A stretch of 64,000 nt of DNA. It comes from Burkholderiales bacterium (GTDB taxonomy: Bacteria > Patescibacteriota > Minisyncoccia > Phycocordibacterales > UBA9973). This document shows, piece by piece, positions 7,551 to 53,926 of this stretch (positions within the stretch are counted from its first letter, which is position 1; each line of letters opens with the position of its first letter). The translations under genes and the position numbers were made by a program. The DNA is taken from NCBI GenBank assembly GCA_023701005.1, contig JAMPXW010000003.1, forward strand, positions 9,148 through 73,147, read 5' to 3'. Under the pieces are notes generated by a model. That model saw only the letters and a program-made list of their open reading frames with translations, did not search any database and was not told where the DNA came from.

Positions 7551-8084
7551 ATGAAAAAGATAGTCCAAAAAGAAGATAGGGTTTTGCACAAAGATGCAAA
7601 AGAAATACCAGTAAAAGACATCACCACCCCTAAAATACAAAAAATACTAAAAGAGATGTCTCAAGCTCTTAAAAATCAAAGTGACGGTGTCGCTCTCGCC
7701 GCTCCTCAAATAGGATATTCCCTTTCAATATTTGTCGTATCTGGAAAAATATTTCATAAAGATTTCGTAAGAGGTATGCAAGAATTTGAAAAAATTCCTG
7801 AAAATGAAGTCCCTAAAGATTTAGTTTTTATAAATCCAAAAATTTCAAAACTTTCCAGAGAAAAAGAATGGCTACCAGAAGGATGCCTTTCCGTGAGATG
7901 GCTTTATGGAAAAGCTTTGAGATCCAAAAAAGCCATGGTGACAGCTTATGACGAAAAAGGTAAGAAATTTCAAAGAGGTGCTTCAGGACTATTAGCTCAG
8001 ATTTTCCAACATGAGACAGACCATCTAAAAGGTGTATTATTTATCGACCACGCCAAAGATATAAGGGAAGAACTACCTCAATAA
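7551..8084 (+). CDS. def: peptide deformylase
   Basis: GVALAAPQIG, EGCLS, QHETDHLKG metal-binding motifs. Confidence 0.9.
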   Translation: MKKIVQKEDRVLHKDAKEIPVKDITTPKIQKILKEMSQALKNQSDGVALAAPQIGYSLSIFVVSGKIFHKDFVRGMQEFEKIPENEVPKDLVFINPKISKLSREKEWLPEGCLSVRWLYGKALRSKKAMVTAYDEKGKKFQRGASGLLAQIFQHETDHLKGVLFIDHAKDIREELPQ

Positions 8085-8091
8085 AATAACT

Positions 8092-8994
8092 ATGGTAAAT
8101 AGCAAAAAAAATCTTAATTTTATTTTTTGGGGAACACCAGATGTAGCAAAAGAAACATTAGATATTTTAAAAGAAAATGGCTATTTGCCTTCACTCATTG
8201 TGACTTCCACAGACAAACCACAAGGTAGAAAAATGATATTAACTCCCCCTCCTGTAAAAGTTTGGGCAATAGAAAACAATATTCCATATATTCAACCAGA
8301 AATTTTGTCTGGCAAAGATTTGCTTTTAGCGGGTGTCTCGCAGGCTGACGAGCCGAGAGGCAGCGCTCCGTTAGTAAACGGAAACAGCGACCCGATAAAA
8401 GTAGAATCCTTGCCAGATTTATCTATCGTGGTAGCTTATGGGAAAATTATTCCTGAAGAAATTTTAAATATGCCAAAATTTGGTTCTATAAATATACATT
8501 ATTCTCTGCTACCTAAGTATCGTGGAGCATCACCAGTAGAAAGTGCTATTTTAAATGGTGATAAAGACACAGGTGTCACAATACAAAAAATGGAATACAA
8601 AATGGATACTGGTCCCATTATTTCCACAGAAAAAACAGAAATATTGCCTACAGAAAAAGCTTCCGAATTAAGAAAAAGATTAATTAAAATAGGAGGAGAT
8701 CATTTAGTAAAAACTTTACCAAAGATTTTAGACAACACCATAACTCTAACTCCACAAAAGGATGAAGATGCTACTTATTGCAAAAAAATAAAAAAAGAAG
8801 ATGGCTTGATAGATCTTAATGATGATGCACAAAAAAACTATAATAAATTTAGAGCTTATTCTACATGGCCTCGTTCTTTCTTCTTTTTAGGAGAAAAAAG
8901 AATTATCATCACAGACGCAATACTAGAAAATAATCTTTTCACTATTAAAAAGATCATCCCCGAAAGTGGTAAAGAAACTAGTTACACTAAATAA
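8092..8994 (+). CDS. fmt: methionyl-tRNA formyltransferase
   Basis: formyl transferase N domain (HYSLLPKYRGASP) and C domain; contains 66-nt GC-rich in-frame insert. Confidence 0.88.
   Translation: MVNSKKNLNFIFWGTPDVAKETLDILKENGYLPSLIVTSTDKPQGRKMILTPPPVKVWAIENNIPYIQPEILSGKDLLLAGVSQADEPRGSAPLVNGNSDPIKVESLPDLSIVVAYGKIIPEEILNMPKFGSINIHYSLLPKYRGASPVESAILNGDKDTGVTIQKMEYKMDTGPIISTEKTEILPTEKASELRKRLIKIGGDHLVKTLPKILDNTITLTPQKDEDATYCKKIKKEDGLIDLNDDAQKNYNKFRAYSTWPRSFFFLGEKRIIITDAILENNLFTIKKIIPESGKETSYTK
8329..8394. repeat. GC-rich in-frame insert (family 2) in fmt linker; encodes AGVSQADEPRGSAPLVNGNSDP
   Basis: ~60% GC; shares 17-nt core ggctgacgagccgaga plus tcg with intergenic site 56065-56084; absent from E. 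coli-type Fmt linker between QP and VVVAYG. Confidence 0.55.
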
Positions 8995-9015
8995 AAACAA
9001 AAAACCCCTTACAGC

Positions 9016-9047
9016 GAGTTTTTTGTCTGCAAGGGGTAATTTTAATT
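9016..9047. terminator. bidirectional terminator between fmt and sixA-like gene
   Basis: ccccttacag / loop / ctgcaagggg with T-runs on both strands. Confidence 0.6.
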
Positions 9048-15510: not shown

Positions 15511-15981
15511 ATGTCTGTTATAATTTATTTTATGTATATAATATATGCTTTGTTGGGTGCTATAATGGCTAGCCTTGGCACAATATTTGCCAAATTAGGA
15601 TTAAAAGGAGTAGACGCAAATATGCTCACAGCCATCCGTGGCATAGTGATGGCTCTCATAGTTTCTATCGCTGCACTATCATTAGGTAAATTGAATATAA
15701 CAGCCCTTTCTTCCCTTTCTGCAAAACAATGGATCTTTGTCATTTTGTCTGGATTGGGAGGAGCTTTGTCTTGGATTTTCTTTTATCAAGCACTATCTGT
15801 TGGCCCCACTGTCGCTGTGACAGTGATCGACAAATTGTCTATCACATTTACCGCTATTTTGGCTGTTGCCGTTTTGTCTGAAGGAATAACTTTACAAGCA
15901 AGTATTGGTTTAGCTTTCGTTGTATTAGGGACACTTCTCGTAGCTATCCCTTGGGAAAAAATTCAAAAACTTTTTTCCTAA
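15511..15981 (+). CDS. small EamA/DMT-family membrane protein (4 TM)
   Basis: hydrophobic 156 aa, EamA-like half-transporter pattern. Confidence 0.45.
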   Translation: MSVIIYFMYIIYALLGAIMASLGTIFAKLGLKGVDANMLTAIRGIVMALIVSIAALSLGKLNITALSSLSAKQWIFVILSGLGGALSWIFFYQALSVGPTVAVTVIDKLSITFTAILAVAVLSEGITLQASIGLAFVVLGTLLVAIPWEKIQKLFS

Positions 15982-22259: not shown

Positions 22260-23441
22260 ATGAATAATACAATTAAAATTAGAAAGGTTTCCTCGTTTAG
22301 AAAGGTTTTTAGTTCTCCTCAAGGAAAAAGCAAGAATATCTACATAGCTATTCTTAATATAAAAGATTTACCGAAAGAGCTTGATGGTTGGTTGGCAATA
22401 AACCCAAGAGAGTCTACCCCTGTTTCTGGTGTAGCAAAAAAAATACAAGCTTCATTAATCGAACAACCTGAAGCTTTTATATTCAAAAACAGAGGATTAA
22501 CGGTAATGACAAAAAAAGTTAATTTTGAAACTCAGACAAATATAATTTCTCTAGAAATGTCTGATCCAAAAATACATGGATTACTTGATGGTGGACATAC
22601 TTACAAAGTAATACAAAATGAACTAAGCAACACAATTGATGGGAGAAAAGATTTAGAAAACGCTTATGTTCGAGTTGAGTTTCTTGAAGGTTTTGATGAC
22701 TTAAATGAAGTTGTTGATATAGTAGACGCAAGAAATAGATCGGCCCAAGTAAAAGAACAAAGCTTAGAGGAATTAAGAAGTCACTTTGAGTCAATAAAAA
22801 GTGTTTTGAAAGACCGACCATATGCGGACCGAGTTGCATATAAAGAAATTGAATTATTAGAAGATGGATCTAAAAAAGATATTGATGTAAAAGAAATCTT
22901 ATCCTATCTAGTATGTTTCGACAATGAAGCATTCACTGACAACAAGCACCCAATAGTTGCCTATTCTGGAAAAGCTACTGCACTAAAACACTACATAGAA
23001 AACAGAGATAGAATGTCTAAATATACGATATTGCTACCTAAGATACTTGAACTAGTAGATAAAATTAAACAAGATATACCTAAATCTTATAATGCTCAAG
23101 GTGGCAGATGGGGCGGTTTACAAGGAGTTATAACTGAAAAAGAAAGTAAAAGAAAAACTGAGCTACCTTTTATAGGCGGTGAGTCAGAATACCAAACGCC
23201 ATCAGGTTTTATCTACCCAATCCTTGCTTCGTTTAGATCTGTGGTTCGAATTGAACGAAATAAGGTATCCTGGAAAATCGATCCTGTGGAATTATTTGAA
23301 AAAGTAAAACCCATGCTAGCCGAAGCAATTGGTGAACAAGCAATTGAATTTAGAAATCCAAACAAACTCGGTAAAGACGGAGCAACTTGGAGATTATGCT
23401 ACGCTCTTGTGGCACTCGAAGTAGCGAAGTTGGGTTATTAA
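22260..23441 (+). CDS. defense-associated ParB-fold protein, DGQHR/DndB-like (positional analogue of Abi genes beside Type I R-M)
   Basis: INPRESTPVSGVAKKI then LLDGGHTYK (DGQHR-like motif) ~residue 110; own terminator at 23455-23488; the family assignment is tentative. Confidence 0.35.
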   Translation: MNNTIKIRKVSSFRKVFSSPQGKSKNIYIAILNIKDLPKELDGWLAINPRESTPVSGVAKKIQASLIEQPEAFIFKNRGLTVMTKKVNFETQTNIISLEMSDPKIHGLLDGGHTYKVIQNELSNTIDGRKDLENAYVRVEFLEGFDDLNEVVDIVDARNRSAQVKEQSLEELRSHFESIKSVLKDRPYADRVAYKEIELLEDGSKKDIDVKEILSYLVCFDNEAFTDNKHPIVAYSGKATALKHYIENRDRMSKYTILLPKILELVDKIKQDIPKSYNAQGGRWGGLQGVITEKESKRKTELPFIGGESEYQTPSGFIYPILASFRSVVRIERNKVSWKIDPVELFEKVKPMLAEAIGEQAIEFRNPNKLGKDGATWRLCYALVALEVAKLGY

Positions 23442-23454
23442 AAAAAATATTTTT

Positions 23455-23488
23455 CAGCACCTAGATAAAATAGGTGCTGTTTTTTTTA
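23455..23488 (+). terminator. rho-independent terminator after 22260-23441
   Basis: cagcaccta-gataaaa-taggtgctg followed by T8. Confidence 0.65.
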
Positions 23489-23540: not shown

Positions 23541-25853
23541 ATGTCTAAAGATCAAGATAATCCAAATCGTGTAATTACAGAACAAGATGCTCGCATCGTA
23601 ATAAACAGAAAACTCCAAGAAGCTGGATGGTCTTTAGAAGGTCCGGAAAAAAATGTATTGACCGAGCAACACTCAGATGCAGGATTTATGGACTATCTCC
23701 TCTTAGATCGAAATGGTAGAAACCTAGCCCTAGTTGAAGCAAAAAAGGATTCCATAGATCCATACACTGCAAAGAACCAAGCGCGAGGATACGCAGAAGC
23801 AAATAACTGCAGATATGTATTCCTAGCGAACTCTGAACAATTATATTTCTGGGACTTAGAAGATGGTGATGCTACTCCCATCGAAAGGTTTATATCTCCA
23901 CAAGACTTACAACGCAGACATGATCTCAAGCTGTCACGCAAACCATTATCTTCAATTCCTCACAATATGGAGATCTGTGACAGACCATATCAAGTTAGCG
24001 CGTCAGACACCATTGCAAAACAATTCGACGAAGGTAAAAGATCTTTCCTTCTTGAGATGGCCACAGGTACAGGCAAAACAAGATTGTCTGCAGGGATAAT
24101 AGACCGCTTCTTAAAAGCACATCAAGCTGAAAGAGTTTTGTTTATTGTGGACCGAATAGAACTAGCTAAACAAACACTAGATGCCTTTCAAATAGCATTC
24201 AAAGACAACTATAGAGCTGTACGTTATAAACCCGGCCAGCATGCAGTATTCGGTGGTGCAAATATCGTAGTAGCGACAATACAAAGCTTAAACATCCACT
24301 TCAAAAAAGACTTCACCCCGGGTTATTTTGACTTAGTTATCAACGATGAAGCACATCGATCCATATACGGCGAATTACCACGCCAAGTTGTTGAATACTT
24401 CCAAGCGGTGCGTATAGGACTAACTGCTACTCCAAACGACTTTTTGAAAAATATAGACATAGAAAAACTACAAGATAGTAATCCCCTTAAACTTGAATAC
24501 AGGTTTGCTCGTGATACATACAAACACTTCGGCTGTGATATGAGTACGCCAACATTTAGATACACCATCCAAGATGGAGTAAAGGATGGCTTCCTCGTTG
24601 CTCCACGTATTGCTCGTATGGTATCAGTAATCACCAAAGAAGCTGTTTCAGAAGATGGATGGAATATAGAAATAGATGGCGAAGACTATACCTATCGTAT
24701 TTCTCAGTTAGAAAAAAAGGTTCTCATCCCAAAAAGAAACGAATTGATTTGTTTTCAATTTTTACAAAATGCATTAAAAACACCAGATGGAGCTATTGGT
24801 AAATCTGTATTCTTTGCAGTATCACAAAACCACGCCGTGGCTCTCGCTCGAGAATTAAACAGACTAACTCCTGAACACAATGGTAAATTCGCGGAGGTTA
24901 TAACTTCTCGTGTGCAAGGAGCTTCTGACCTGGCTAAGCAATTCAGAAAAGATGAAAACTTCTATCCTCGTATAGCGGTGAGTGTGGACATGCTAACTAC
25001 GGGTTTTGATTGTCCTGAAATTCTAAACATAGTACTCGCTCGTCCGATTGCTTCACCAACCACATACATTCAGATCAAAGGACGTGGTACTAGAAAGTAT
25101 ACCTTCCCAGACGGCACACCCAAAAAAGAATTCTTGGTGCATGACTTCTGTGAAGTGGTGAAGTATTTTGAAGAAGAATATGACTTCGAAGCACCGTTAC
25201 CTGTGACTGGTACTGGTGGCGGTGGCACAACACCACCCCCACCTCCTCCACCACCTGAAGAAGTAAAAACCTACGAAGGCACTGATGAAATAGTACTAAC
25301 AGAAATGATTCAAGTCGGTCCTGAGGGTGAAAAAGTAGACCGTCTTGTTTATATAACAAAATGGGAAAAGACTATCAGACAAATTATCAACGAAAACCCA
25401 ATCCTAGCTAAACAAGTAGAAGAAGGTTCTGAAGAAGAAATATCAGAATTCTTGCGTACAAATGTCTTCGACAAACCGACAGAATACTTCAACGAGAGAA
25501 ACCTTTCCCGTGCATATAGAGTGTTTGGGGATTTGATTGATTTTGTGAAAGCAGGTCTTGGTATGCAAAAACTTCCGACCCGAGAAGAGCAATTACTCGA
25601 ATTGGTAGAAAGCATCAGAACTGATCACGACCTAAACCTAGAACAAGTAAGGTTGTTAAAGATACTTGTAAGGCAATTGAGCCAAAGCCCTAAGCTCTTG
25701 GCCAAGTTTGAGGCCGGAGATTACTCTTTCCTCGACGAATCGCCTTTCTCTCAGTTTGGTGGTACAAGAATGTATATAGCTGGCTTTGATTCGAAAATTA
25801 GAGTAGTGTTTGATACCGTACGCTCAAGTCCGGCGTTAACAATAGTTGAATAA
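23541..25853 (+). CDS. hsdR: Type I restriction enzyme R subunit (short form, with poly-Pro linker)
   Basis: HSDR_N nuclease-like N-terminus (DYLLLDRNG..LVEAKK), helicase motifs EMATGTGKT, DEAH, LTATP, QIKGRGTR; GGGGTTPPPPPPPP linker at ~25200-25260; noticeably higher GC than surroundings. Confidence 0.85.
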   Translation: MSKDQDNPNRVITEQDARIVINRKLQEAGWSLEGPEKNVLTEQHSDAGFMDYLLLDRNGRNLALVEAKKDSIDPYTAKNQARGYAEANNCRYVFLANSEQLYFWDLEDGDATPIERFISPQDLQRRHDLKLSRKPLSSIPHNMEICDRPYQVSASDTIAKQFDEGKRSFLLEMATGTGKTRLSAGIIDRFLKAHQAERVLFIVDRIELAKQTLDAFQIAFKDNYRAVRYKPGQHAVFGGANIVVATIQSLNIHFKKDFTPGYFDLVINDEAHRSIYGELPRQVVEYFQAVRIGLTATPNDFLKNIDIEKLQDSNPLKLEYRFARDTYKHFGCDMSTPTFRYTIQDGVKDGFLVAPRIARMVSVITKEAVSEDGWNIEIDGEDYTYRISQLEKKVLIPKRNELICFQFLQNALKTPDGAIGKSVFFAVSQNHAVALARELNRLTPEHNGKFAEVITSRVQGASDLAKQFRKDENFYPRIAVSVDMLTTGFDCPEILNIVLARPIASPTTYIQIKGRGTRKYTFPDGTPKKEFLVHDFCEVVKYFEEEYDFEAPLPVTGTGGGGTTPPPPPPPPEEVKTYEGTDEIVLTEMIQVGPEGEKVDRLVYITKWEKTIRQIINENPILAKQVEEGSEEEISEFLRTNVFDKPTEYFNERNLSRAYRVFGDLIDFVKAGLGMQKLPTREEQLLELVESIRTDHDLNLEQVRLLKILVRQLSQSPKLLAKFEAGDYSFLDESPFSQFGGTRMYIAGFDSKIRVVFDTVRSSPALTIVE

Positions 25854-25856
25854 AAA

Positions 25857-27335
25857 ATGAAATTACAATTTACAAATTCAGACATAAAACAAAAAGTAGA
25901 TCGCATCATGTATGAGCTGTTTGCTGGTGGAGTAAACAACCCAATGACAGCCATCGAACAGATCAGCTATTTGATGTTTCTAAAATCCTTAACTGAATTT
26001 GATGAGCAACAAGAAAGAATTTCTAATCTATCTGGTAAAAAATACGAGAGTGTATTCAATGGAAAAATCAGCAAGTTCAGTTGGCGTGTAATTAGTCGAC
26101 TTTCTGGTGATGAGCTATATAACACACTAGCAGAAGTATTCGAACATTTACACGAACTTCCAAAACTTACAGCCACAGGAAAAACCCTATTCCGCCAAGC
26201 TCACTTAAAGATATACAATCGCCCTACCCTAAAATCAGTAGTGAGTATTATAGATGGAATGGACTACAACAATGCTGAAAAATACGACACAGATGTCAAA
26301 GGAGATATGTATGAATATCTCTTAAACAGAATAGCTGTGGCCGGTACAAACGGACAATTCAGGACTCCACGTCACATCATCAAGGCTATGGTTGAATTAA
26401 GTAAACCAAAACCATCAGATCTAATACTGGACCCGGCTTGTGGTACTGCTGGATTTTTGATTGAAGCATACAAACACATACTCAAAGAAAATACTTCAAA
26501 AGAAGAATTAGCTGAAGGAAATGAAAATGGTGACGAACTATCACCTGCACAACATGAATTCCTAAAAACAAAAGCTATCAATGGTTTTGACAACGATGCA
26601 GACATGATTAAAGTAGCGGTAATGAATTTATACCTTCATGATTTAGCTCAATCAAATGTAATAAACTTCGATCCACTAACTCTTCCAGAAGAAAAGAAAA
26701 AGAAATACGATTTGATACTCGCAAACCCTCCTTTCGCTGGTAATATAAACCCTGAAGCAATCCAAGAAGACATTGGATTAAGTACTACAAAAACAGAATT
26801 ACTATTCTTGAAATACATGTATGACCATCTAGCTGATGGTGGTAGATGCGCAGTGATTGTGCCTGAAGGAATCTTATTCGGGTCTACAGGCGCTCACAAA
26901 AAAATGCGTGAACTAATGATGGACACATGCAAAATAGATGCAGTAATCAGTCTTCCCTCTGGAGTATTCAAACCATATGCGGGAGTAAAAACTGCGATAA
27001 TCTTGTACACGAAAGGTGGTAAAACTGACAAGGTCTGGTTTTATGAAGTAGTTGGTGATGGATTTACTCTTGATGATAAAAGAAACCCAGACCCAAAGAA
27101 TGACAACCTAAAGGATTTATTCAAGGCTTTCGAAAAGAAAGAAGCTGGCCCGTATAGTTGGATAGTAAAAAGAGATGAAATAGTAGCTGAAGAATACAAC
27201 CTCACAGCATCACGATACAAACCTGCAAGCACTGAAGTCATAAACCACCGAGACCCTAAAGAGATCATTACAGAGGTAATGAAACTTGAAAAAGAAATAG
27301 TCGAGGGTCTTGAAAATCTAAAGAAAAAGATATGA
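25857..27335 (+). CDS. hsdM: Type I R-M N6-adenine DNA methyltransferase subunit
   Basis: HsdM N-domain, AdoMet motif DPACGTAGF, catalytic NPPF. Confidence 0.9.
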   Translation: MKLQFTNSDIKQKVDRIMYELFAGGVNNPMTAIEQISYLMFLKSLTEFDEQQERISNLSGKKYESVFNGKISKFSWRVISRLSGDELYNTLAEVFEHLHELPKLTATGKTLFRQAHLKIYNRPTLKSVVSIIDGMDYNNAEKYDTDVKGDMYEYLLNRIAVAGTNGQFRTPRHIIKAMVELSKPKPSDLILDPACGTAGFLIEAYKHILKENTSKEELAEGNENGDELSPAQHEFLKTKAINGFDNDADMIKVAVMNLYLHDLAQSNVINFDPLTLPEEKKKKYDLILANPPFAGNINPEAIQEDIGLSTTKTELLFLKYMYDHLADGGRCAVIVPEGILFGSTGAHKKMRELMMDTCKIDAVISLPSGVFKPYAGVKTAIILYTKGGKTDKVWFYEVVGDGFTLDDKRNPDPKNDNLKDLFKAFEKKEAGPYSWIVKRDEIVAEEYNLTASRYKPASTEVINHRDPKEIITEVMKLEKEIVEGLENLKKKI

Positions 27336-28423
27336 CATGGGAAACGATACAATTCGACAAAATAATTACTTCATATGGTGTTGGTAAAAATGGTCTATCT
27401 AAAAAAGATTGGAGTGAAGATGACAAATATCCAGTAATAGGACAAGGCGCTGATTTCATAGAAGGTTGGACAAACAGAGAAGATTTGGTAATTAATCCTG
27501 ATTCTGAGGGTTTAGTTATTTATGGTGGACACACACGAAGAGCAAAATATATAACTACACCTTTTGTGCCCGGTCCTAATGTGAAAATACTAAAAACACC
27601 TCCTGAGATAAAACCTAGATTTTTATTCTACTTTCTTAATTCTGCAGAAATACCAAATAAAGGGTATGCGGATCACTTTCCTCTTGTAAAAAGAATTAAA
27701 GTACCTATACCTTCCATAAAAGAGCAAGAAAGAATTGTAGCTCTTCTTGAGCAAGCTGAGGAATTAAAAAACAAAAGAGCTGAGGCAGATCAAAAAATGG
27801 AAGAACTAGTCCCTGCATTATTTAATGATATGTTCGGGAATTTGTCACAATGGCCAAAAATCAAACTCAGAGATATAGCAATTGTTAAAATAGGCCCCTT
27901 TGGGACACAATTACATAAACATGATTACATAGAAAATGGCACCCCCATTGTTAACCCTACTCATATAGTTGAAGGTAAAATAATTGTAAATCAATCATTT
28001 ACTATCAGTGAAGAAAAGACCAAAGAAATTAATCAGTATATTATGCATACCGGAGATATCGTGCTAGCAAGAAGGGGTGAAATGGGAAGATCTGCGATAG
28101 TCTCTGAAAAAGAAGATGGCTACTTGTGCGGTACAGGTAGTTTGTTTATAACTCCAACTAACCAAATTAATCCATATTTTCTAAACACAATTTTTTCTTC
28201 AATTCAAATGAAAAAAACATTAGAGGAAAATGCTCGTGGCGTGACAATGAAAAACTTAAATATCAATATCGTTGAAAATATATGTATTTCAAACCCACCC
28301 ATAGAATTACAAAACCAATACGAGAGAACTATTAAAGAACTTATGTTCTTAAAACATAAACAAGAAGAATCGGTCAATAAATTAAAAGAACTATTTACGG
28401 CTATTCTAACAAAAAGCATATGA
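27332..28423 (+). CDS. hsdS: Type I R-M specificity subunit (two target-recognition domains)
   Basis: two TRD halves separated by conserved coiled region (EQERIVALLEQAEELK); start overlaps hsdM stop (ATGA). Confidence 0.85.
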   Translation: MTWETIQFDKIITSYGVGKNGLSKKDWSEDDKYPVIGQGADFIEGWTNREDLVINPDSEGLVIYGGHTRRAKYITTPFVPGPNVKILKTPPEIKPRFLFYFLNSAEIPNKGYADHFPLVKRIKVPIPSIKEQERIVALLEQAEELKNKRAEADQKMEELVPALFNDMFGNLSQWPKIKLRDIAIVKIGPFGTQLHKHDYIENGTPIVNPTHIVEGKIIVNQSFTISEEKTKEINQYIMHTGDIVLARRGEMGRSAIVSEKEDGYLCGTGSLFITPTNQINPYFLNTIFSSIQMKKTLEENARGVTMKNLNINIVENICISNPPIELQNQYERTIKELMFLKHKQEESVNKLKELFTAILTKSI

Positions 28424-30102
28424 CAAGACAGAAACCTATAAAAGAAATAATGCCGTGGAGCAAAGATGAGCTAGAAAAACTATTACTCAAAGTAATAGAC
28501 CTTGGTGTAGAGACAGCTAAAATTGATTTCAAGCTCGAAATTGAAACAAACACTCCTGAGCAAAAATCAGAACTATTAAAAGATATTTGTGCAATTTCAA
28601 ATACTTATGACCTAAATTATGATGATTATGGTTTTCTTATATATGGAGTAAAATCAAAATCTATTATTGGTATCTCTACAACGGAAGAAAATACTGACAA
28701 TTTTCAAAATCACATAGAGCAATTACTCAAAAACAACATCACTCCTACTCCACAAATACAGATTGTTTCTTTTGAAACCGAAGACAATAAAAAATGGGGT
28801 GTAATTGTTATACCACCAGACAACAATAAACCTCACATGTTCTTTAAGGATTTCTCTTGTCCAACAAATCCAAGCAAAAACAGAAAAAAGGGCGAATGGT
28901 TTGTAAGACATGGTTCTACTACCGACCCTGCTTCAGCAGAAGATCTCTCAATCATTAACCAAAAACAAATTGAAATAACCTTAGAGCCACTAAAAGAGAG
29001 TATTAAGAATTTACAAGCTCGTGTTCTAAAAACTGAAGAGCAGTACAACAGCGCCCTATTTAAGCTAATAGAAACTGCACTAAAAAATACTACTCAAAAT
29101 AGAAATGCGCCTGAAGTAGAAAAAACTGAAATTGCATCTGATATTGAAGAAGTAGTTTCAGTTGATTTGGCAAGTCGATTCAAAAGTAAATTACTTACAC
29201 CTAAAGATAAGTTATCCGAAGAACTTATCTCGGAGGCAATTAAAATAAGAGAATACATAGATGGAGCAAATACAGGGCTAACTTGGATACCTCAATTAAA
29301 TAATTCGGAAGACAATAAAAAGATCGTAGAAAACTTAGAAGAAAAGATAAAACCATTTATTGATTCTGTGGCCATGATCGTATTAAAGGACGAAAAAAAT
29401 ATCTATAAAGAATCACTAATAAAAGCTATAAAAATTCTTTGCAAATCAATAGATGCCCCAAGTGGCACTCAGTATAATAGAATAGGACAAGGTATTAGAT
29501 ACTATCCATTATACCTACTCTTATATGTGATTTTTATTTGCGGGGTGGTTTCAAATAAAGGATCGTTACTAAAAGATATACTGAATCTTCAAATAAAACA
29601 TCCACGAACTAAAAATACCTCACCTATTACAGATGTTTATTTCTTCGCCTATGAAGGAAAAGCTTTAGTAAACGATGCTTATAAACAAAGGTGGTGTGAG
29701 CCAATTGCGCAAAGAATACGACAATTTATAAGTGACAATATCGGTGAACATATTACAGAAATGTCTGAGGCGGAGTATTTTTTCAAAGGAGAATTTGTTC
29801 TATCACTAAGTAATATCAATAAGGCGATGAGTGATGGCGAACAAGTAGAACACAGAATTCCACTAGGTGGACTTTATCTACATTTATATGAATGCAACGA
29901 ACCAATAACCGATTTAATAACAGAATTACCCGATTGGCTAGATAAATTATATGATCATCCACTAAACGAAATTCTAGACATGTTTGATAAAAATGCAACA
30001 AAAATGTCTGGCCAGGGTTGTTTTGCAACAGGTACTCATGGTCTTAAAACCAGAGAATTATATGACCTCGCGTTAAGCTCTAGAGCTAAAAAGACTCGAT
30101 AA
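28420..30102 (+). CDS. AlbA_2/Schlafen-like (COG2865-type N-domain) protein with coiled-coil middle and uncharacterised 230-aa C-terminal domain
   Basis: N-term ETAKIDFK...ICAISNTYD..GFLIYGV...WFVRHGSTTDPASAEDL matches AlbA_2 signature (E..LEFK / AlANt.GG / yvRvGsst..A..ee); ATGA overlap with hsdS stop. Confidence 0.6.
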   Translation: MTRQKPIKEIMPWSKDELEKLLLKVIDLGVETAKIDFKLEIETNTPEQKSELLKDICAISNTYDLNYDDYGFLIYGVKSKSIIGISTTEENTDNFQNHIEQLLKNNITPTPQIQIVSFETEDNKKWGVIVIPPDNNKPHMFFKDFSCPTNPSKNRKKGEWFVRHGSTTDPASAEDLSIINQKQIEITLEPLKESIKNLQARVLKTEEQYNSALFKLIETALKNTTQNRNAPEVEKTEIASDIEEVVSVDLASRFKSKLLTPKDKLSEELISEAIKIREYIDGANTGLTWIPQLNNSEDNKKIVENLEEKIKPFIDSVAMIVLKDEKNIYKESLIKAIKILCKSIDAPSGTQYNRIGQGIRYYPLYLLLYVIFICGVVSNKGSLLKDILNLQIKHPRTKNTSPITDVYFFAYEGKALVNDAYKQRWCEPIAQRIRQFISDNIGEHITEMSEAEYFFKGEFVLSLSNINKAMSDGEQVEHRIPLGGLYLHLYECNEPITDLITELPDWLDKLYDHPLNEILDMFDKNATKMSGQGCFATGTHGLKTRELYDLALSSRAKKTR

Positions 30103-30342
30103 AAACCAAGGAAAATGGTAAAATGAATTTACCATAATTTATGGTGACAAAACCTAAACCAGAGCAATCTGGCATGGTTCAAATATCCCACGCGAATAGA
30201 AACGGCCACATAAGCCGACATTCATTCGCGTGGGTCCACAATCGAAAGGTTGTGGGATAGTTCCGAAAGGAGCTGTCGTCGTGTCTTGTGTGGCCATTTG
30301 TGTTAAACAAGCCGACTATTATCAACTAAAACCCACGCGAAA
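30103..30342 (+). other. GC-rich highly structured leader/ncRNA candidate with mutually exclusive pairings
   Basis: cccacgcgaa at 30187 and again at 30329 just before the ATG, complementary ttcgcgtggg at ~30231; hairpins atggtaaa/tttaccat/atggt, ccaga-gcaa-tctgg, cccacaa-tcgaaagg-ttgtggg. Confidence 0.45.
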
Positions 30343-31261: not shown

Positions 31262-31801
31262 TTATAAATAAGGTTGCAAGTCTCTGCAATTTGACCTATC
31301 CAAAAGATTACTAGGGAGACGTGTAGTTATCCAATCAGAATTAGAAAGTAGTAATAACTTCCAAACCCAAGCAGATTCAAAAAACAATCTGGTCCTATCC
31401 TTCCAAGATAATTCAGGGTTAGCATAACAACTAAAACCATCTTCATTTATAAATAAAGTATTATAGGAAGTTATAGCTTTGTATGCTTCTTCCATAAAAC
31501 AAGAAGACAACTTAATCCCTCCACGCTTCTCTAAATCCTTAGCTAAAGCTTCTAAAACAGCATTCAATCGTCCATCCTGTATCCATCTTTTATACCTTCT
31601 ATGACATGTTTGAAAAGACGGAAAACCCTCGCCTTTAGGTAAGCGCCTCCAAGAACCACCTAGCTGAATCACATACAAAATACTATTAAGCACATCTCTA
31701 TCAGAAGTTCTTTTTCTTCCTCTGGTTTCCAAAGAATTACGCTTAATAAGCGGTTCTACTAAAGCCCATTGTTTATCTGTTAACTTAAATGGCAAGATCA
31801 T
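31262..31801 (-). mobile_element. IS5-family (IS427/ISL2 group) transposase remnant, N-terminal DUF4096-type domain only
   Basis: LTDKQWALVEPLI..RGRKRTSDRDVLNSILYVIQLGGSWRRLP...YKRWIQDGRLN matches IS5-family N-terminus; DDE region degenerate/absent, 179 aa. Confidence 0.65.
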
Positions 31802-31838: not shown

Positions 31839-32525
31839 ATGGAAACTAAAGGCGATAAAAATGTGCTAGCGCACATAGCTGATGTGATATTAAAATCGAA
31901 AGTAAAAGACAATAATCAATACTCTGGAATCAAGTATGAGTCTCTTCCGTTTGCAAAAGAAGAAGCTAGAGAAGGACTCAAGGAATTAGCAAGAAACAAG
32001 TACATAGAAATAGAAAAAGATTATGATACATACTTACACGAAGAACCAATACACGACCCATTCCCTATAAATAACCACCCCTCAAAAACAATCTATACAA
32101 TACCGGCCGGAGCATTAGTAAAAATAAAGAATGAAAAAGAACTAAAAAAACTAGCTTCGACTAAATCATTTATAAATCCAAATATCAAAGATTTGAAAAA
32201 AGATGAGAGTACTGGAGATTTTTATTTGAAAGAAGATAAGTTAGAAATGGGACACGAAACCACACATTACACTCTCTTAGAGTTATTCTACGAAAAAGCT
32301 ACTGATGGAGTTATCACACAAGACTCCGCTCTAGAATTTTTTAATGAAAGAAAAATCAAAGTCGGTGGCAAAAAGATAACAAAAGAAAATATAAATAAAA
32401 CAATAAATAACTATACCGCTTCTCTACTAAGATTCGCAAAAATTAAAGGAAAAAGATTCACAAGCTCACCAATAAAAAAAGTGAAAAAAGGCAAATATGT
32501 AATCGGCTGGAAATTCTCTAAATAA
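31839..32525 (+). CDS. hypothetical protein, 228 aa
   Basis: ORF only. Confidence 0.45.
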   Translation: METKGDKNVLAHIADVILKSKVKDNNQYSGIKYESLPFAKEEAREGLKELARNKYIEIEKDYDTYLHEEPIHDPFPINNHPSKTIYTIPAGALVKIKNEKELKKLASTKSFINPNIKDLKKDESTGDFYLKEDKLEMGHETTHYTLLELFYEKATDGVITQDSALEFFNERKIKVGGKKITKENINKTINNYTASLLRFAKIKGKRFTSSPIKKVKKGKYVIGWKFSK

Positions 32526-32949: not shown

Positions 32950-33326
32950 GTGCCTTTTCAAGCCCTGGGCGCACCTATGTGGGGCTTGTAAAAATAAAAT
33001 AGACATAGGATTGGTTTCGTGATCCCGCGATTAAGGGATGAGGGGTGTCACAAGGAAACCAAACCACTGATTGCGGTGTAGCTTAAAAGACCCTAACGCA
33101 ATCAAGTTCACCACCAGTACATTATTATGAGCTGTGTTGGATAGATGGGTCCAAGTAACCTCCGAGATAAAACGGAAAAAGGTACGGCGACCCCCTAAGG
33201 TTCTAAAACCGTGGGGGTTTGGGGGCTATTGGATTCGGGAAAGGTGTCTTTACTAGACTTCTTGAGAAAAATCCAATACCCTTGTGTTTGCATAAATTAT
33301 TAGAAATTAATAACAAAAAAAATAAA
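32950..33326 (+). other. GC-rich structured non-coding region upstream of serine recombinase (ncRNA or recombination-site candidate)
   Basis: hairpins caagccc...gggcttg, tggtttc...gaaacca, gattgcg...cgcaatc, attggatt...aatccaat; competing ccccc/ggggg segments; markedly GC-richer than genome. Confidence 0.4.
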
Positions 33327-35036
33327 ATGGAAAAAGAACAACAAAAATTAAACAAATACTTTATTTATTGCAGAAAGTCTACAGACAGCGAAGATAGACA
33401 AATACAATCATTATCAGATCAAATTAGGATATTACAAGAAATGGCAGAAAAGAAAGGTTTAATGATAGTAGAAACCTTACAAGAAGCTAAATCTGCTAAA
33501 GCACCCGGTAGGCCAGTATTCACGAAAATGATTGAGAGAATTAGTAAAGGTGAAGCCAATGGAATAATCACATGGAAATTAAATCGATTAGCGCGTAATC
33601 CTATAGATGGTGGAACTATCAGCTGGCTACTCCAACAAGGAGTGATTAAAGAAATCCTCACCCCGGAAAAAAGCCACTATCCAAATGATAATGCATTAAT
33701 CATGTCAGTAGAATTAGGTATCGCAAATCAATTCATTAGAGACTTAAGTAGTGATGCTAAGCGTGGTATAAAAACAAGAGCAACACAAAAAGGTTACCCA
33801 AATGGAGTTGCTCCTATAGGATACTTAAATGATCTTGTGAAAGCCAAAGGAGATCGTGGCTGGAAAGTAGACGAAGAAAGATTTCCAATAATAAAACAAA
33901 TACTAAAAATGTTTGCCACGGGTAAATACTCAGTGAGACAAATGACTAGTATTGCTAACGAAGAAATGGGATTGAGAACCTTTATAAGGAAAAAACAAGG
34001 TGGAAAGAAAATCGTTGTATCTTACATGGATGTGATATTAAAAAATCCAGTATATGCCGGCTTCTTCTTTCTCAATACAGATAATAGTAGGCATGAAGTA
34101 AACAAAGAAATTCCAAGAATGATCTCTGAAGAAACATATTGGAAAATACAAAAAATTCTTGGAAACAGAGGACGCCCTAGGCCTCACAAAAATATAAAAG
34201 CTTTCGCTTATACAGGTCTCACCAAATGCGGTGGCTGTGGTGGCTCTGTGACGGCTGAAGAAAAATACCAATTAATATGTTCCAGTTGTAAGCATAAATT
34301 CGCCTATGCAAGTAAAAACGAATGCCCCAAATGCAAAACAAAGATAAAAGACATGGAAGATCCTACTTACTTACACTATACCTACTATCACTGCACAAAA
34401 AAGAAAAGAGAACTAAAATGCAAAGAAAGATCAGTGGTGGATACAAAAATCGATGAGACGCTGGCAGACTACTATAAAAAAAACTTAAAAATATCAGCCG
34501 ACTTGTCTAAGTGGTGCATAGAAAATCTACGAGTAATTGAGAAAGAAGAAAAGCAAAATGATTACGAGATAAAAGCGTCTTTACAGAAAACCCTGACATC
34601 AAAAGAAAAAGAGCTTTCAGAACTAGCACTGATGCGCGCCAGAGGGCTTTTGGACGATGAAAGCTTCATTACAGCACAAAATACAATAAAGGAAGATATT
34701 AGCGCCCTTAAGCGAAAATTGAGCGAATTTGAGCATCTTGATCCAGAAAAAGCAGAAAGGATTTACCAAGCATTCGACCTATCGCAAGGCATAGACGAAA
34801 TTATCAGAAATGGCACGCCTGAAGAGAAAAAATCAGTATTATTGGAAATTGGTTCGAACCTAACTCTAAAAGACAAAACAATCAATGTTTATAACAGCGA
34901 ATTGTATTCTGCAATAATAAATGGACTACATTTAGCAAAGTCTGAAATTGAGTGGTTCGAACCTGAAAATTATCAAGCAGAACAAGAACAAAACGCCTCT
35001 TTCGAGGCGCTTCGTTCAACCATGCTCCGGGGGTAG
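33327..35036 (+). CDS. large serine recombinase (integrase type: resolvase catalytic domain + recombinase domain + zinc ribbon + coiled coil)
   Basis: YCRKSTDSEDRQ..SLSDQ catalytic Ser region, LNRLAR, CGGCGGS...CSSCKH...CPKCKT zinc ribbon; start set at MEKEQQ (ORF track start 33219 overlaps a conserved hairpin); stop overlaps tRNA-Asn 3' end. Confidence 0.8.
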   Translation: MEKEQQKLNKYFIYCRKSTDSEDRQIQSLSDQIRILQEMAEKKGLMIVETLQEAKSAKAPGRPVFTKMIERISKGEANGIITWKLNRLARNPIDGGTISWLLQQGVIKEILTPEKSHYPNDNALIMSVELGIANQFIRDLSSDAKRGIKTRATQKGYPNGVAPIGYLNDLVKAKGDRGWKVDEERFPIIKQILKMFATGKYSVRQMTSIANEEMGLRTFIRKKQGGKKIVVSYMDVILKNPVYAGFFFLNTDNSRHEVNKEIPRMISEETYWKIQKILGNRGRPRPHKNIKAFAYTGLTKCGGCGGSVTAEEKYQLICSSCKHKFAYASKNECPKCKTKIKDMEDPTYLHYTYYHCTKKKRELKCKERSVVDTKIDETLADYYKKNLKISADLSKWCIENLRVIEKEEKQNDYEIKASLQKTLTSKEKELSELALMRARGLLDDESFITAQNTIKEDISALKRKLSEFEHLDPEKAERIYQAFDLSQGIDEIIRNGTPEEKKSVLLEIGSNLTLKDKTINVYNSELYSAIINGLHLAKSEIEWFEPENYQAEQEQNASFEALRSTMLRG

Positions 35037-35062: not shown

Positions 35063-35631
35063 CACTTTATCTCCTATTACTAGAAGTGTGGACTATATCA
35101 TCTCCATGTTCATAAAATTTATGAATTTAGAAGCAAGGCGCTTCGCGCTCTAACATAAATTAGAGAGCTACTCCATAAATGGATAGTCTCTACACCTTCC
35201 TCAATTTAAAATTGAGGCTTGGCTCGGGATTACCCCATAAGGGCTTCCCCGAATTCACCTTGTTTTTCAACCTAAGTTTTCTTAGGAAGCTGCGTAATAC
35301 CGTCATGTATTTCCATATGACAATTTGCACACAAGAGAACACATTTATCAATTTCTTTTTTGATACGTTCCCATGACCTAGTTAACCCCCTAGAAGAAAG
35401 ATCAAAATCTTTTTCTTTTGGATTTAAGTGATGAAAACTTAATGATCTCTGGCATTTATTATAGCCACACACAATACACTTACCGCCTTTATAGTCTCTA
35501 GCCATTTCACGAAGCTTTTTTCTTCTTCTTGTAACAGCCATTACCATATATTCTCTACGGTCGGCATATGTTCGTTTTTCTACTCGTTTCTTTTTGGTAT
35601 ACACAAGTAGATTATACCACAAACATCCGAC
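35063..35631 (-). mobile_element. group I intron within tRNA anticodon loop
   Basis: 5' exon ends in U, intron ends in G; P7 pairing agacta...tagtc and P8-like hairpin tccatttatgga downstream of ORF. Confidence 0.65.
35272..35622 (-). CDS. HNH homing endonuclease encoded in the tRNA intron
   Basis: CIVCGYNKCQRSLSFHHLNPKEKD...LLCANCHMEIH HNH motif; non-ATG (TTG) start in track. Confidence 0.7.
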   Translation of the reverse strand: MWYNLLVYTKKKRVEKRTYADRREYMVMAVTRRRKKLREMARDYKGGKCIVCGYNKCQRSLSFHHLNPKEKDFDLSSRGLTRSWERIKKEIDKCVLLCANCHMEIHDGITQLPKKT

Positions 35632-40918: not shown

Positions 40919-40992
40919 GGGCCCTTAGCTCATCTGGCTAGAGCGCCTCATTTGCAATGAGGAGGTGGCAGGTTCGAGTCCTGTAGGGTCCA
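40919..40992 (+). tRNA. tRNA-Ala(UGC)
   Basis: cloverleaf: GGGCCCT acceptor (G3:U70), D-arm GCTC/GAGC, anticodon stem CCTCA/TGAGG loop TTTGCAA, T-loop TTCGAGT, discriminator A; no encoded CCA. Confidence 0.85.
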
Positions 40993-41003
40993 CGCGTAAA
41001 AAA

Positions 41004-42104: not shown

Positions 42105-42435
42105 AAGTCTGGTAAGATAATACCGGTCCTGTATTGAATAGTTGCGCTCCGGCCTCGGCTGGAGTGAGGAAAGTCCGAACACATAGTCTCGGCTTAGGCC
42201 TTAGACAAGCGTAGTGGGTAACGCCCATCGGGAGCAATCCCAGAGTTGAGAACAGTGACGAACCGATTTAGTTCGGGTGAAACGGCAAAATACTTACGTG
42301 TGTGCAAGATCGTGTTCTGCGAAGCTTCATGCGAAGCAGAAAGAATCGCTTGAGCCCGAGCGTAAGCGAGGGCCTAGACAAATAACTATTGCCTTTATTG
42401 GTACAGAATTCGGCTTATAGATACAAGGCTCACAT
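42105..42435 (+). ncRNA. rnpB: RNase P RNA, bacterial type A
   Basis: GAGGAAAGUCCGAAC (P4 5' strand), GGGUAACGCC, GGGUGAAACGG, GCUUGAGCC, ACAGAAUUCGGCUUA (P4 3' strand) in canonical order; ends approximate (+/-20 nt). Confidence 0.85.
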
Positions 42436-53842: not shown

Positions 53843-53915
53843 GCCGCCTTAGCTCAGTTGGTAGAGCAACGCTTTTGTAAAGCGAAGGTCCTCAGTTCAA
53901 ATCTGAGAGGCGGCT
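53843..53915 (+). tRNA. tRNA-Thr(UGU)
   Basis: GCCGCCT acceptor/AGGCGGC, D-arm GCTC-AGTTGGTA-GAGC, anticodon loop TTTGTAA, T-loop TTCAAAT; parallels E. coli tRNA-Thr. Confidence 0.85.
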
Positions 53916-53926
53916 CAAAAACAATA

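Follow-up and report, generated by a model that had tools for sequence, protein, structure and literature searches.

A predicted Schlafen nuclease joined to a PDC-S65-type helical domain in the last gene of a Type I restriction–modification operon of a Patescibacteriota genome

The stretch of DNA analysed here (64,000 nucleotides of contig JAMPXW010000003.1, below called the window) carries a Type I restriction–modification (R-M) operon whose last gene codes for a protein of 560 amino acids. This protein, the target of our analysis, consists of an N-terminal Schlafen/AlbA_2 domain with a conserved catalytic motif and of a mostly alpha-helical C-terminal domain (C-domain), which is shared with the phage defence candidate PDC-S65 and which in other proteins follows quite different N-terminal domains. 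On balance we think it probable that the target is a single-chain anti-phage sensor–effector of the prokaryotic Schlafen (pSlfn) kind, in which a Schlafen tRNase is combined with the C-domain as sensor.

Results

The target gene and its operon

The genes of the operon and the parts of the target protein are listed below; AF2 stands for AlphaFold2 and pLDDT for the predicted local distance difference test score of its models.

23541..25853, plus strand: hsdR, EcoAI/EcoEI-like Type I restriction subunit (Pfam ResIII, EcoEI_R_C and HSDR_N_2; PADLOC REase_I; NCBIfam restrict_EcoAI below its cutoff)
25857..27335, plus strand: hsdM, Type I methyltransferase (Pfam N6_Mtase and HsdM_N; PADLOC MTase_I, E=2.6e-148)
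27332..28423, plus strand: hsdS, specificity subunit (Pfam Methylase_S; PADLOC Specificity_I)
28420..30102, plus strand: target open reading frame (ORF), 560 amino acids, ATG start; Schlafen/AlbA_2 nuclease domain, helical linker and PDC-S65-type C-terminal domain
28447..28935, plus strand: Schlafen/AlbA_2 domain, residues ~10-172, predicted tRNA endonuclease effector (Pfam, phmmer and Foldseek; pLDDT about 88-94)
28510..28533, plus strand: Ex4(E/D)xK catalytic motif, E31-T-A-K-I-D36-F-K38 (alignment with CbCash and family conservation)
28936..29202, plus strand: residues 173-261, a long helix (173-225) and then a low-confidence linker (226-260) (AF2 secondary structure and pLDDT)
29203..30099, plus strand: C-domain, residues 262-560, mostly alpha-helical, predicted sensor/regulator (AF2; PADLOC PDLC05061; profile search and domain-swap analysis)
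29500..29550, plus strand: hydrophobic helix inside the C-domain, residues 361-377, YYPLYLLLYVIFICGVV (AF2 model)

According to Pfam and PADLOC the genes for HsdR, HsdM and HsdS are all present in the same orientation and make up a Type I R-M operon. A gap of 3 nt separates hsdR from hsdM, and overlaps of 4 bp join hsdM to hsdS and hsdS to the target, the start codon of which shares the sequence ATGA with the stop codon of hsdS. Given this overlap the target is predicted to be coupled to hsdS in translation; it closes the hsdR-hsdM-hsdS-X operon and does not lie inside it. An earlier reading of the window made from the letters alone (the sequence-only reading) had described the gene as embedded in the hsd operon; it is indeed co-operonic with the Type I genes, but it stands at their end. 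An internal position does occur in a homolog of 60% identity, which lies between hsdM and hsdS.

The ORF which that reading had proposed was found again with its ATG start, and the motifs quoted from it are all present in the translation (ETAKIDFK at residues 31-38, ICAISNTYD at 56-64, WFVRHGSTTDPASAEDL at 160-176 and the hydrophobic stretch at 361-377). There are 92 homologs, mostly of 545-565 amino acids and 45-63% identical over the full length, and because of these full-length relatives we regard the ORF as a real, conserved gene. Many of the homologs stem from assemblies of Parcubacteria, Nomurabacteria or Paceibacterota, and the names given to them by NCBI are only 'ATP-binding protein' or 'hypothetical'.

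The N-terminal domain carries the Schlafen active-site motif

The sole Pfam family in the target protein is SLFN_AlbA_2 (PF04326), which covers residues 31-171 (profile positions 1-117 of 118, E=5.4e-15, 56.4 bits compared with a cutoff of 25.3), in agreement with the AlbA_2/Schlafen signature previously noticed at residues ~10-175. Among the PDB sequences the only significant phmmer match was CbCash (9ylu, E=4.8e-10), residues 16-176 of the target being aligned with residues 2-157 of CbCash. CbCash is a tRNA endonuclease switched on by cyclic tetra-adenylate (cA4); its active site is formed by E17, D22 and K24 together with Mg2+, and tRNA cleavage is lost in the mutants E17Q, D22N and K24A (PMC13462974). 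In the phmmer alignment their counterparts in the target are E31, D36 and K38, which belong to an Ex4(E/D)xK motif as reported for 5,930 prokaryotic Schlafens (PMC13056530). All three residues are invariant in an alignment of 48 family members, and the motif is kept in each of the eight context-diverse homologs that were checked. A Foldseek search with the full-length AF2 model (pLDDT 83.8) retrieved the tRNase domain of SAMD9 (9o0d, probability 1.0, template modelling (TM) score relative to the target 0.39-0.44) and the nuclear magnetic resonance structure of an AlbA_2 domain (2kyy, TM score relative to the target 0.54), with modest E-values of 1e-3 to 3e-2 for these two. Because of the Pfam match, the alignment with the CbCash triad, the invariance of the three residues and the Foldseek matches, we read the N-terminal domain most readily as a Schlafen nuclease with catalytic competence, tRNA cleavage being its predicted activity.

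CbCash is the closest solved relative of this domain and has the catalytic triad in common with it, and the target would also suit the published description of Cluster 4. The match ends, however, at residue 157 of the 297 residues of CbCash, before the C-terminal Csx15 domain, and the pocket residue R25 of CbCash corresponds to L39 in the target. Since no counterpart of Csx15 was matched and the C-terminal half is without a match among the PDB sequences, activation by cA4 is not expected for the target.

The C-domain is modelled confidently and matches no solved structure

Behind the nuclease domain the AF2 model shows a single long helix and a linker of low confidence, and from about residue 262 on the chain is part of the folded C-domain. 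The coiled coil formerly assigned to residues 180-330 does not agree with this model. Residues 173-261 could possibly serve as an oligomerisation stalk. The C-domain itself is predicted with high confidence (pLDDT 93.2, predicted TM score 0.91), and its core is conserved throughout the family (W289, D324, R360-x-Y362-P363, E458-F459, G484 and F522-D523). The hydrophobic helix starts at R-x-Y-P, the most conserved motif of the family, and residues 362-377 have pLDDT blocks of 96-97 within the compact model of the domain.

When a profile of the C-terminal half was compared with the PDB sequences only noise was obtained (E about 1); Foldseek returned designed helical repeats as the best match among PDB structures (E 0.015, TM about 0.2) and no match among the viral structures of BFVD. 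A solved relative of the C-domain was therefore rejected, and the structural check that had been suggested for the C-terminal half thus gave a confident fold without a fold match. A Pfam scan of residues 181-560 at E<=10 likewise yielded noise only (RhoGEF 0.049, TSC22 0.93), and NCBIfam had no match for the target protein. The COG2865-type proteins (AlbA_2, HATPase_c_4 and helix-turn-helix (HTH)) share with the target the N-terminal AlbA_2/Schlafen domain and a frequent R-M neighbourhood. Their architecture was rejected, as neither HATPase nor HTH was matched in residues 181-560 even at E<=10, and in this respect the sequence-only reading, which had set the target apart from COG2865, was borne out.

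The C-domain is shared with PDC-S65 and follows different N-terminal domains

That residues 330-560 match nothing, as had been stated, is true for Pfam, NCBIfam, PDB and BFVD but not for PADLOC. Residues 271-491 of the target align with positions 330-543 of the 592 positions of PDLC05061 (E=2.5e-12), which together with PDLC05060 models PDC-S65, a single-gene phage defence candidate that is itself uncharacterised. An exhaustive search of 1.84 billion cluster representatives with a profile of the C-domain gave 134 matches, and PDC-S65 was matched by 63 of the 72 longer representatives. Most C-domain representatives carry the Schlafen domain at the N-terminus. In proteins with other N-termini the C-domain was matched with E-values of 1e-16 to 1e-68; there it is preceded by PNP_UDP_1 in P0131 (2e-23), by SIR2_2 in P0162 and P0196 and by EAD8 in P0137, P0174 and P0206, while the Mrr-like N-termini of P0182 and P0210 were matched weakly and the cyclase N-terminus of P0110 is a borderline match. 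With E=0.013 the C-domain match of the UvrD-like protein P0224 was too weak, and we rejected this protein as a fusion partner.

Along the PDC-S65 profile the match of the SIR2_2 protein P0162 runs from end to end (positions 21-551, E=5e-170); PDC-S65 proper is thus SIR2 plus the C-domain, and the window protein an effector-swapped sibling. What the two have in common is the C-terminal helical module of ~250-300 residues, and the closest SIR2-fused subgroup keeps W289, D324, R360, Y362, P363, E458, F459, F522 and D523. Like the target, PDC-S65 is a single gene that is sometimes found inside Type I loci; in contrast, its N-terminal SIR2 domain is replaced by Schlafen in the target, which therefore matches only the C-terminal part of the profile given above. 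The SIR2-type family with the C-domain is large, with more than 3,000 matches. Searching for carriage of the C-domain by phages or plasmids gave no tblastn matches, and no relatives were found in IMG/VR.

Among the N-terminal partners, SIR2, PNP-type phosphorylases, Mrr nucleases and Schlafen are known from defence systems as effector domains, and Pfam names EAD8 an effector-associated domain. One constant partner shared by varied effectors is normally a sensor or a regulator. The same logic has been applied to Schlafen fusions by Perez Taboada et al. (PMC13056530) and by Weickert et al. As the C-domain stays constant while the N-terminal effectors are swapped, it is probably the sensor or regulator of the protein and the Schlafen domain the effector; a scaffold, an autoinhibitory or even an enzymatic role of the C-domain may also be conceived.

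The linkage to R-M systems is recurrent but facultative

We surveyed the neighbourhoods of the homologs, as the sequence-only reading had proposed, in about 19 lineages with usable flanks. The loci were gathered by an alignment-based metagenome scan; a single-sequence query of genome contigs returned one locus. R-M genes directly adjoin the homolog in ~5 of the 19 lineages, well above the ~1-2% to be expected for a random gene, a figure which is a rough estimate of our own and not a computed background. The window and a relative of 96% identity (locus L048) both have the order hsdR-M-S-X. The 60%-identical homolog between hsdM and hsdS shows a 4-bp overlap, and its own relative of 82% identity is preceded by a Type ISP enzyme; in both of these 82%-identical homologs, the Type I and the Type ISP one, the overlap with the upstream methyltransferase gene is ATGA. 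A branch of 31% identity is flanked by Type III mod and res, and one homolog has a Dcm methylase at a distance of 0.8 kb and a Type I system at 4 kb.

The remaining homologs are solo genes, many of them on serine-recombinase islands, and most homologs on long contigs have no R-M genes within 8-10 kb. Neighbours of the solo genes are IS200-type or serine-recombinase genes, an integrase, an AAA_15/21 ATPase, Mrr with a nucleotidyltransferase, Fic, SocA and housekeeping genes. Serine recombinases occur within 10 kb of the target in the window and of its homologs at no fewer than seven other distinct loci. Four SIR2-fused relatives were examined; one of them follows hsdS as an insertion in a Type I locus, and a second is carried as Tn7-like cargo.

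The linkage to R-M genes is thus facultative and not tied to one R-M type. We rejected an obligatory Type I partnership, as the linkage is confined to ~5 of 19 lineages and extends over Type I (in two gene orders), Type ISP and Type III systems. A partnership with Type I R-M, as first proposed, holds for the operon of the window but is optional in the family, most other homologs being solo genes. That the linkage is facultative and runs across R-M types argues against a dedicated contact with Hsd subunits. The gene contexts fit a co-expression of layered defences, or a sensor that responds to something which restriction or anti-restriction generally brings about.

Three further observations were made at the surveyed loci. 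A divergent gene for a DUF4236-TPR protein lies directly upstream of the homolog at L015 (8976-9917, minus strand) and at L047 (7998-8936, minus strand); the two proteins are 58% identical and could reflect shared synteny or a functional partner. At L001 (9758-9844, minus strand) and L008 (11753-11839, minus strand) tRNA genes of 87 nt are found ~100 bp or less downstream of the homolog, which suggests that the gene or its island was inserted next to tRNA genes. At L050 (1866-15757) a Type I locus has five genes inserted between hsdM and hsdR, coding for Fic, a SIR2-PDC-S65 protein, an AAA_15/AAA_21 ATPase and a pair of AAA_21 and DUF4276 proteins, a clear example of an hsd operon as a landing pad for defence genes.

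The island in the window

The GC content of the window is 33%, and the segment from 22.5 to 36 kb is richer in GC than its flanks. This ~13-kb island, with a GC content of 0.33-0.41 compared with 0.28-0.31 in the flanks, contains the operon. Its other features, followed by three housekeeping RNA genes outside of it, are:

22260..23441, plus strand: AIPR (abortive-infection-like) gene, directly upstream of hsdR (Pfam AIPR, E=4.5e-30)
30151-30277, plus strand: LOOT RNA (Rfam RF03000, 71 bits, gathering score 46)
31262-31801, minus strand: DUF4096 transposase fragment of IS4/IS5 type, right-hand part of the island
31839-32525, plus strand: ORF of 228 amino acids whose L048 counterpart has HTH_36, right-hand part of the island
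33219..35036, plus strand: large serine recombinase (Pfam Resolvase and Recombinase)
35070-35359, minus strand: group I intron (Rfam RF00028, 65.5 bits; L048 equivalent at 15699-15943, minus strand)
40919-40993, plus strand: tRNA-Ala(TGC), outside the island
42126-42433, plus strand: RNase P RNA class A (110 bits, gathering score 100), outside the island
53843-53916, plus strand: tRNA-Thr(TGT), outside the island

The serine recombinase is probably the mobility gene of the island. A terminator-like hairpin was found by a terminator scan 3' of the AIPR gene (23455-23479). At the position of the AIPR gene L048 has instead a gene for an EcoRI-type methylase and a GmrSD/HNH gene, and we therefore regard the island as a variable defence hotspot. 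Between the window and L048 the HsdS proteins (27332-28423 and 7924-9018) are 57% identical, compared with 92-93% for HsdR and HsdM and 96% for the Schlafen protein. This divergence of HsdS is consistent with an exchange of target-recognition domains of the specificity subunit.

The LOOT RNA begins 49 bp past the stop codon of the target and ends 66 bp before an ORF of 289 amino acids without a Pfam match. It is also present at L048 (10746-10872), L047 (12940-13046) and L015 (14405-14541), so that in three separate lineages it lies 0.05-2.8 kb downstream of homologs of the target, each time on a serine-recombinase island and closely upstream of an ORF that differs from case to case. A 5' leader is one possible role, an RNA of mobile islands in bacteria of the Candidate Phyla Radiation (CPR) another. 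Our literature search on PDC-S65 and on LOOT RNA gave nothing usable. The group I intron directly follows the stop codon of the serine recombinase (35036) and shares part of its sequence with a small ORF on the minus strand (35272-35622), whose L048 equivalent has a faint HNH match; a split tRNA or the attachment site of the island could be the host of the intron.

Discussion

The reading which we favour is that of a sensor–effector on a single chain. The Schlafen/AlbA_2 domain would be a metal-dependent tRNA endonuclease with E31, D36 and K38 in its active site, connected by the long helix to the alpha-helical C-domain of ~300 residues, which would hold the nuclease off until an infection is sensed. 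Activation would probably proceed via oligomerisation, as in other Schlafens, and the activated nuclease would cleave tRNA, leading to translation arrest and abortive infection. With its translation coupled to hsdS the protein would be made together with the Type I R-M system and would form a second layer of defence on the serine-recombinase island.

The repeated linkage to R-M genes could also point to a guard of the PrrC type, whose nuclease is kept silent through contact with the R-M enzyme or through its normal working and is freed by an anti-restriction factor or by DNA ends from restriction; the C-domain would then sense the state of the R-M system and not a phage structural protein. PrrC-EcoprrI is a precedent for such a guard of restriction. 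The translational coupling within three R-M types (Type I after hsdS and between hsdM and hsdS, Type ISP and Type III) speaks for this explanation, as do the ATGA overlaps of the two 82%-identical homologs and the SIR2-fused relative behind hsdS in another Type I locus, and Weickert et al. speculate that R-M-linked Schlafens sense products of DNA cleavage. We nevertheless hold a guard to be unlikely, since most homologs on long contigs are far from any R-M gene, and a specific protein contact is hardly to be expected with linked systems of unrelated types and different subunits. In addition, Type I loci serve generally as hotspots at which defence genes are inserted. It is just as improbable, in our view, that the C-domain is a portable infection sensor, with a fold unseen in solved structures, which specifically monitors the success or failure of restriction. 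Its cues would be anti-restriction proteins or restriction-generated DNA ends, and it would be wired to at least four outputs (Schlafen tRNase, SIR2 NADase, PNP-type nucleosidase and EAD8 adaptor); if true, this would explain why it has been inserted again and again into R-M operons of Type I, Type ISP and Type III.

According to the sequence-only reading the roles of the two halves are reversed: AlbA_2 binds or targets DNA and the C-terminal half is a new effector. Such an effector could, for example, be membrane-active through its hydrophobic helix or enzymatic through its conserved R, E and D residues. The C-domain is indeed without a known fold match, it has near-invariant polar residues (R360, E458 and D523) and a hydrophobic helix of 17 residues, and AlbA_2 has historically been annotated as DNA-binding in the source names of the databases. 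Yet a mere binding domain would not need the invariant Schlafen triad. The C-domain is constant beside bona fide effectors (SIR2, PNP and, weakly matched, Mrr-like N-termini) and beside the adaptor EAD8, and two effectors in one protein would be unusual; moreover, the hydrophobic helix is modelled with very high confidence inside a compact domain of soluble type. We therefore abandoned the effector assignment for the C-terminal half and consider it very unlikely. More remote still is a protein with no immune role at all; as a toxin or addiction module, or as a factor of RNA processing, it would serve to keep the serine-recombinase island stable or to control the hsd operon. The recurrent serine recombinases, the transposases and the tRNA-adjacent islands would suit such a protein, and for 30% of the pSlfn genes Perez Taboada et al. 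(PMC13056530) found no known defence gene nearby; on the other hand the Pfam scans of the target revealed no HTH or other regulator domain, no conserved antitoxin-like partner is adjacent across the surveyed loci, and related pSlfn proteins defend against phage in experiments.

The favoured sensor–effector resembles several known systems. PrrC and RloC are tRNA-cleaving suicide nucleases that reside within Type I hsd loci as a back-up to restriction and that combine an ABC-ATPase-type N-terminal domain with a different nuclease. The target shares their location in a Type I hsd locus, but only a minority of its homologs does so, and no ABC-ATPase or PrrC-type Pfam match is present in it. Closer are the pSlfn proteins, which protect E. 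coli and one of which, RorSlfn5, has an Ig-like sensor and acts as a tRNase when activated by phage (Perez Taboada et al., Nat Microbiol 2026, PMC13056530). RorSlfn5 (Slfn plus Ig-like sensor) and EcoSlfn7 (DUF262-Slfn) share with the target the N-terminal nuclease with the Ex4(E/D)xK motif, the fusion to a proposed sensor on one chain and the location in defence islands, and an unannotated fusion domain, as in the target, is present in 17.2% of the pSlfn proteins (PMC13056530). In contrast, the C-domain of the target is all-alpha and unrelated to the Ig-like, DUF262 and HisKinase partners, and its host has a CPR/Patescibacteria-type genome and is not an enterobacterium. A preprint of 2025 describes a defensive Schlafen with an unannotated C-terminus that was found using serine recombinases as bait, and in papers of 2026 Schlafen tRNases of prokaryotes are reported that have unannotated C-terminal domains and lie near R-M systems.

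The kind of protein is therefore already known, and the target probably falls into a class that has already been flagged and is uncharacterised. The general principle of Schlafen tRNases with interchangeable sensors, often near R-M systems, was published in 2026, and the target adds no further category. Apparently new are the identity of the C-domain as the PDC-S65 module, its sharing with SIR2, PNP and EAD8 fusions and the lack of a fold match in our searches. By its C-domain the target connects a lineage of Schlafens with PDC-S65, an as yet uncharacterised candidate of PADLOC. Defence in CPR bacteria is poorly studied. The trigger of the C-domain, if found, would account for the whole set of effector-swapped systems at once, and it could show why such genes nest in R-M operons, including those of small CPR genomes.

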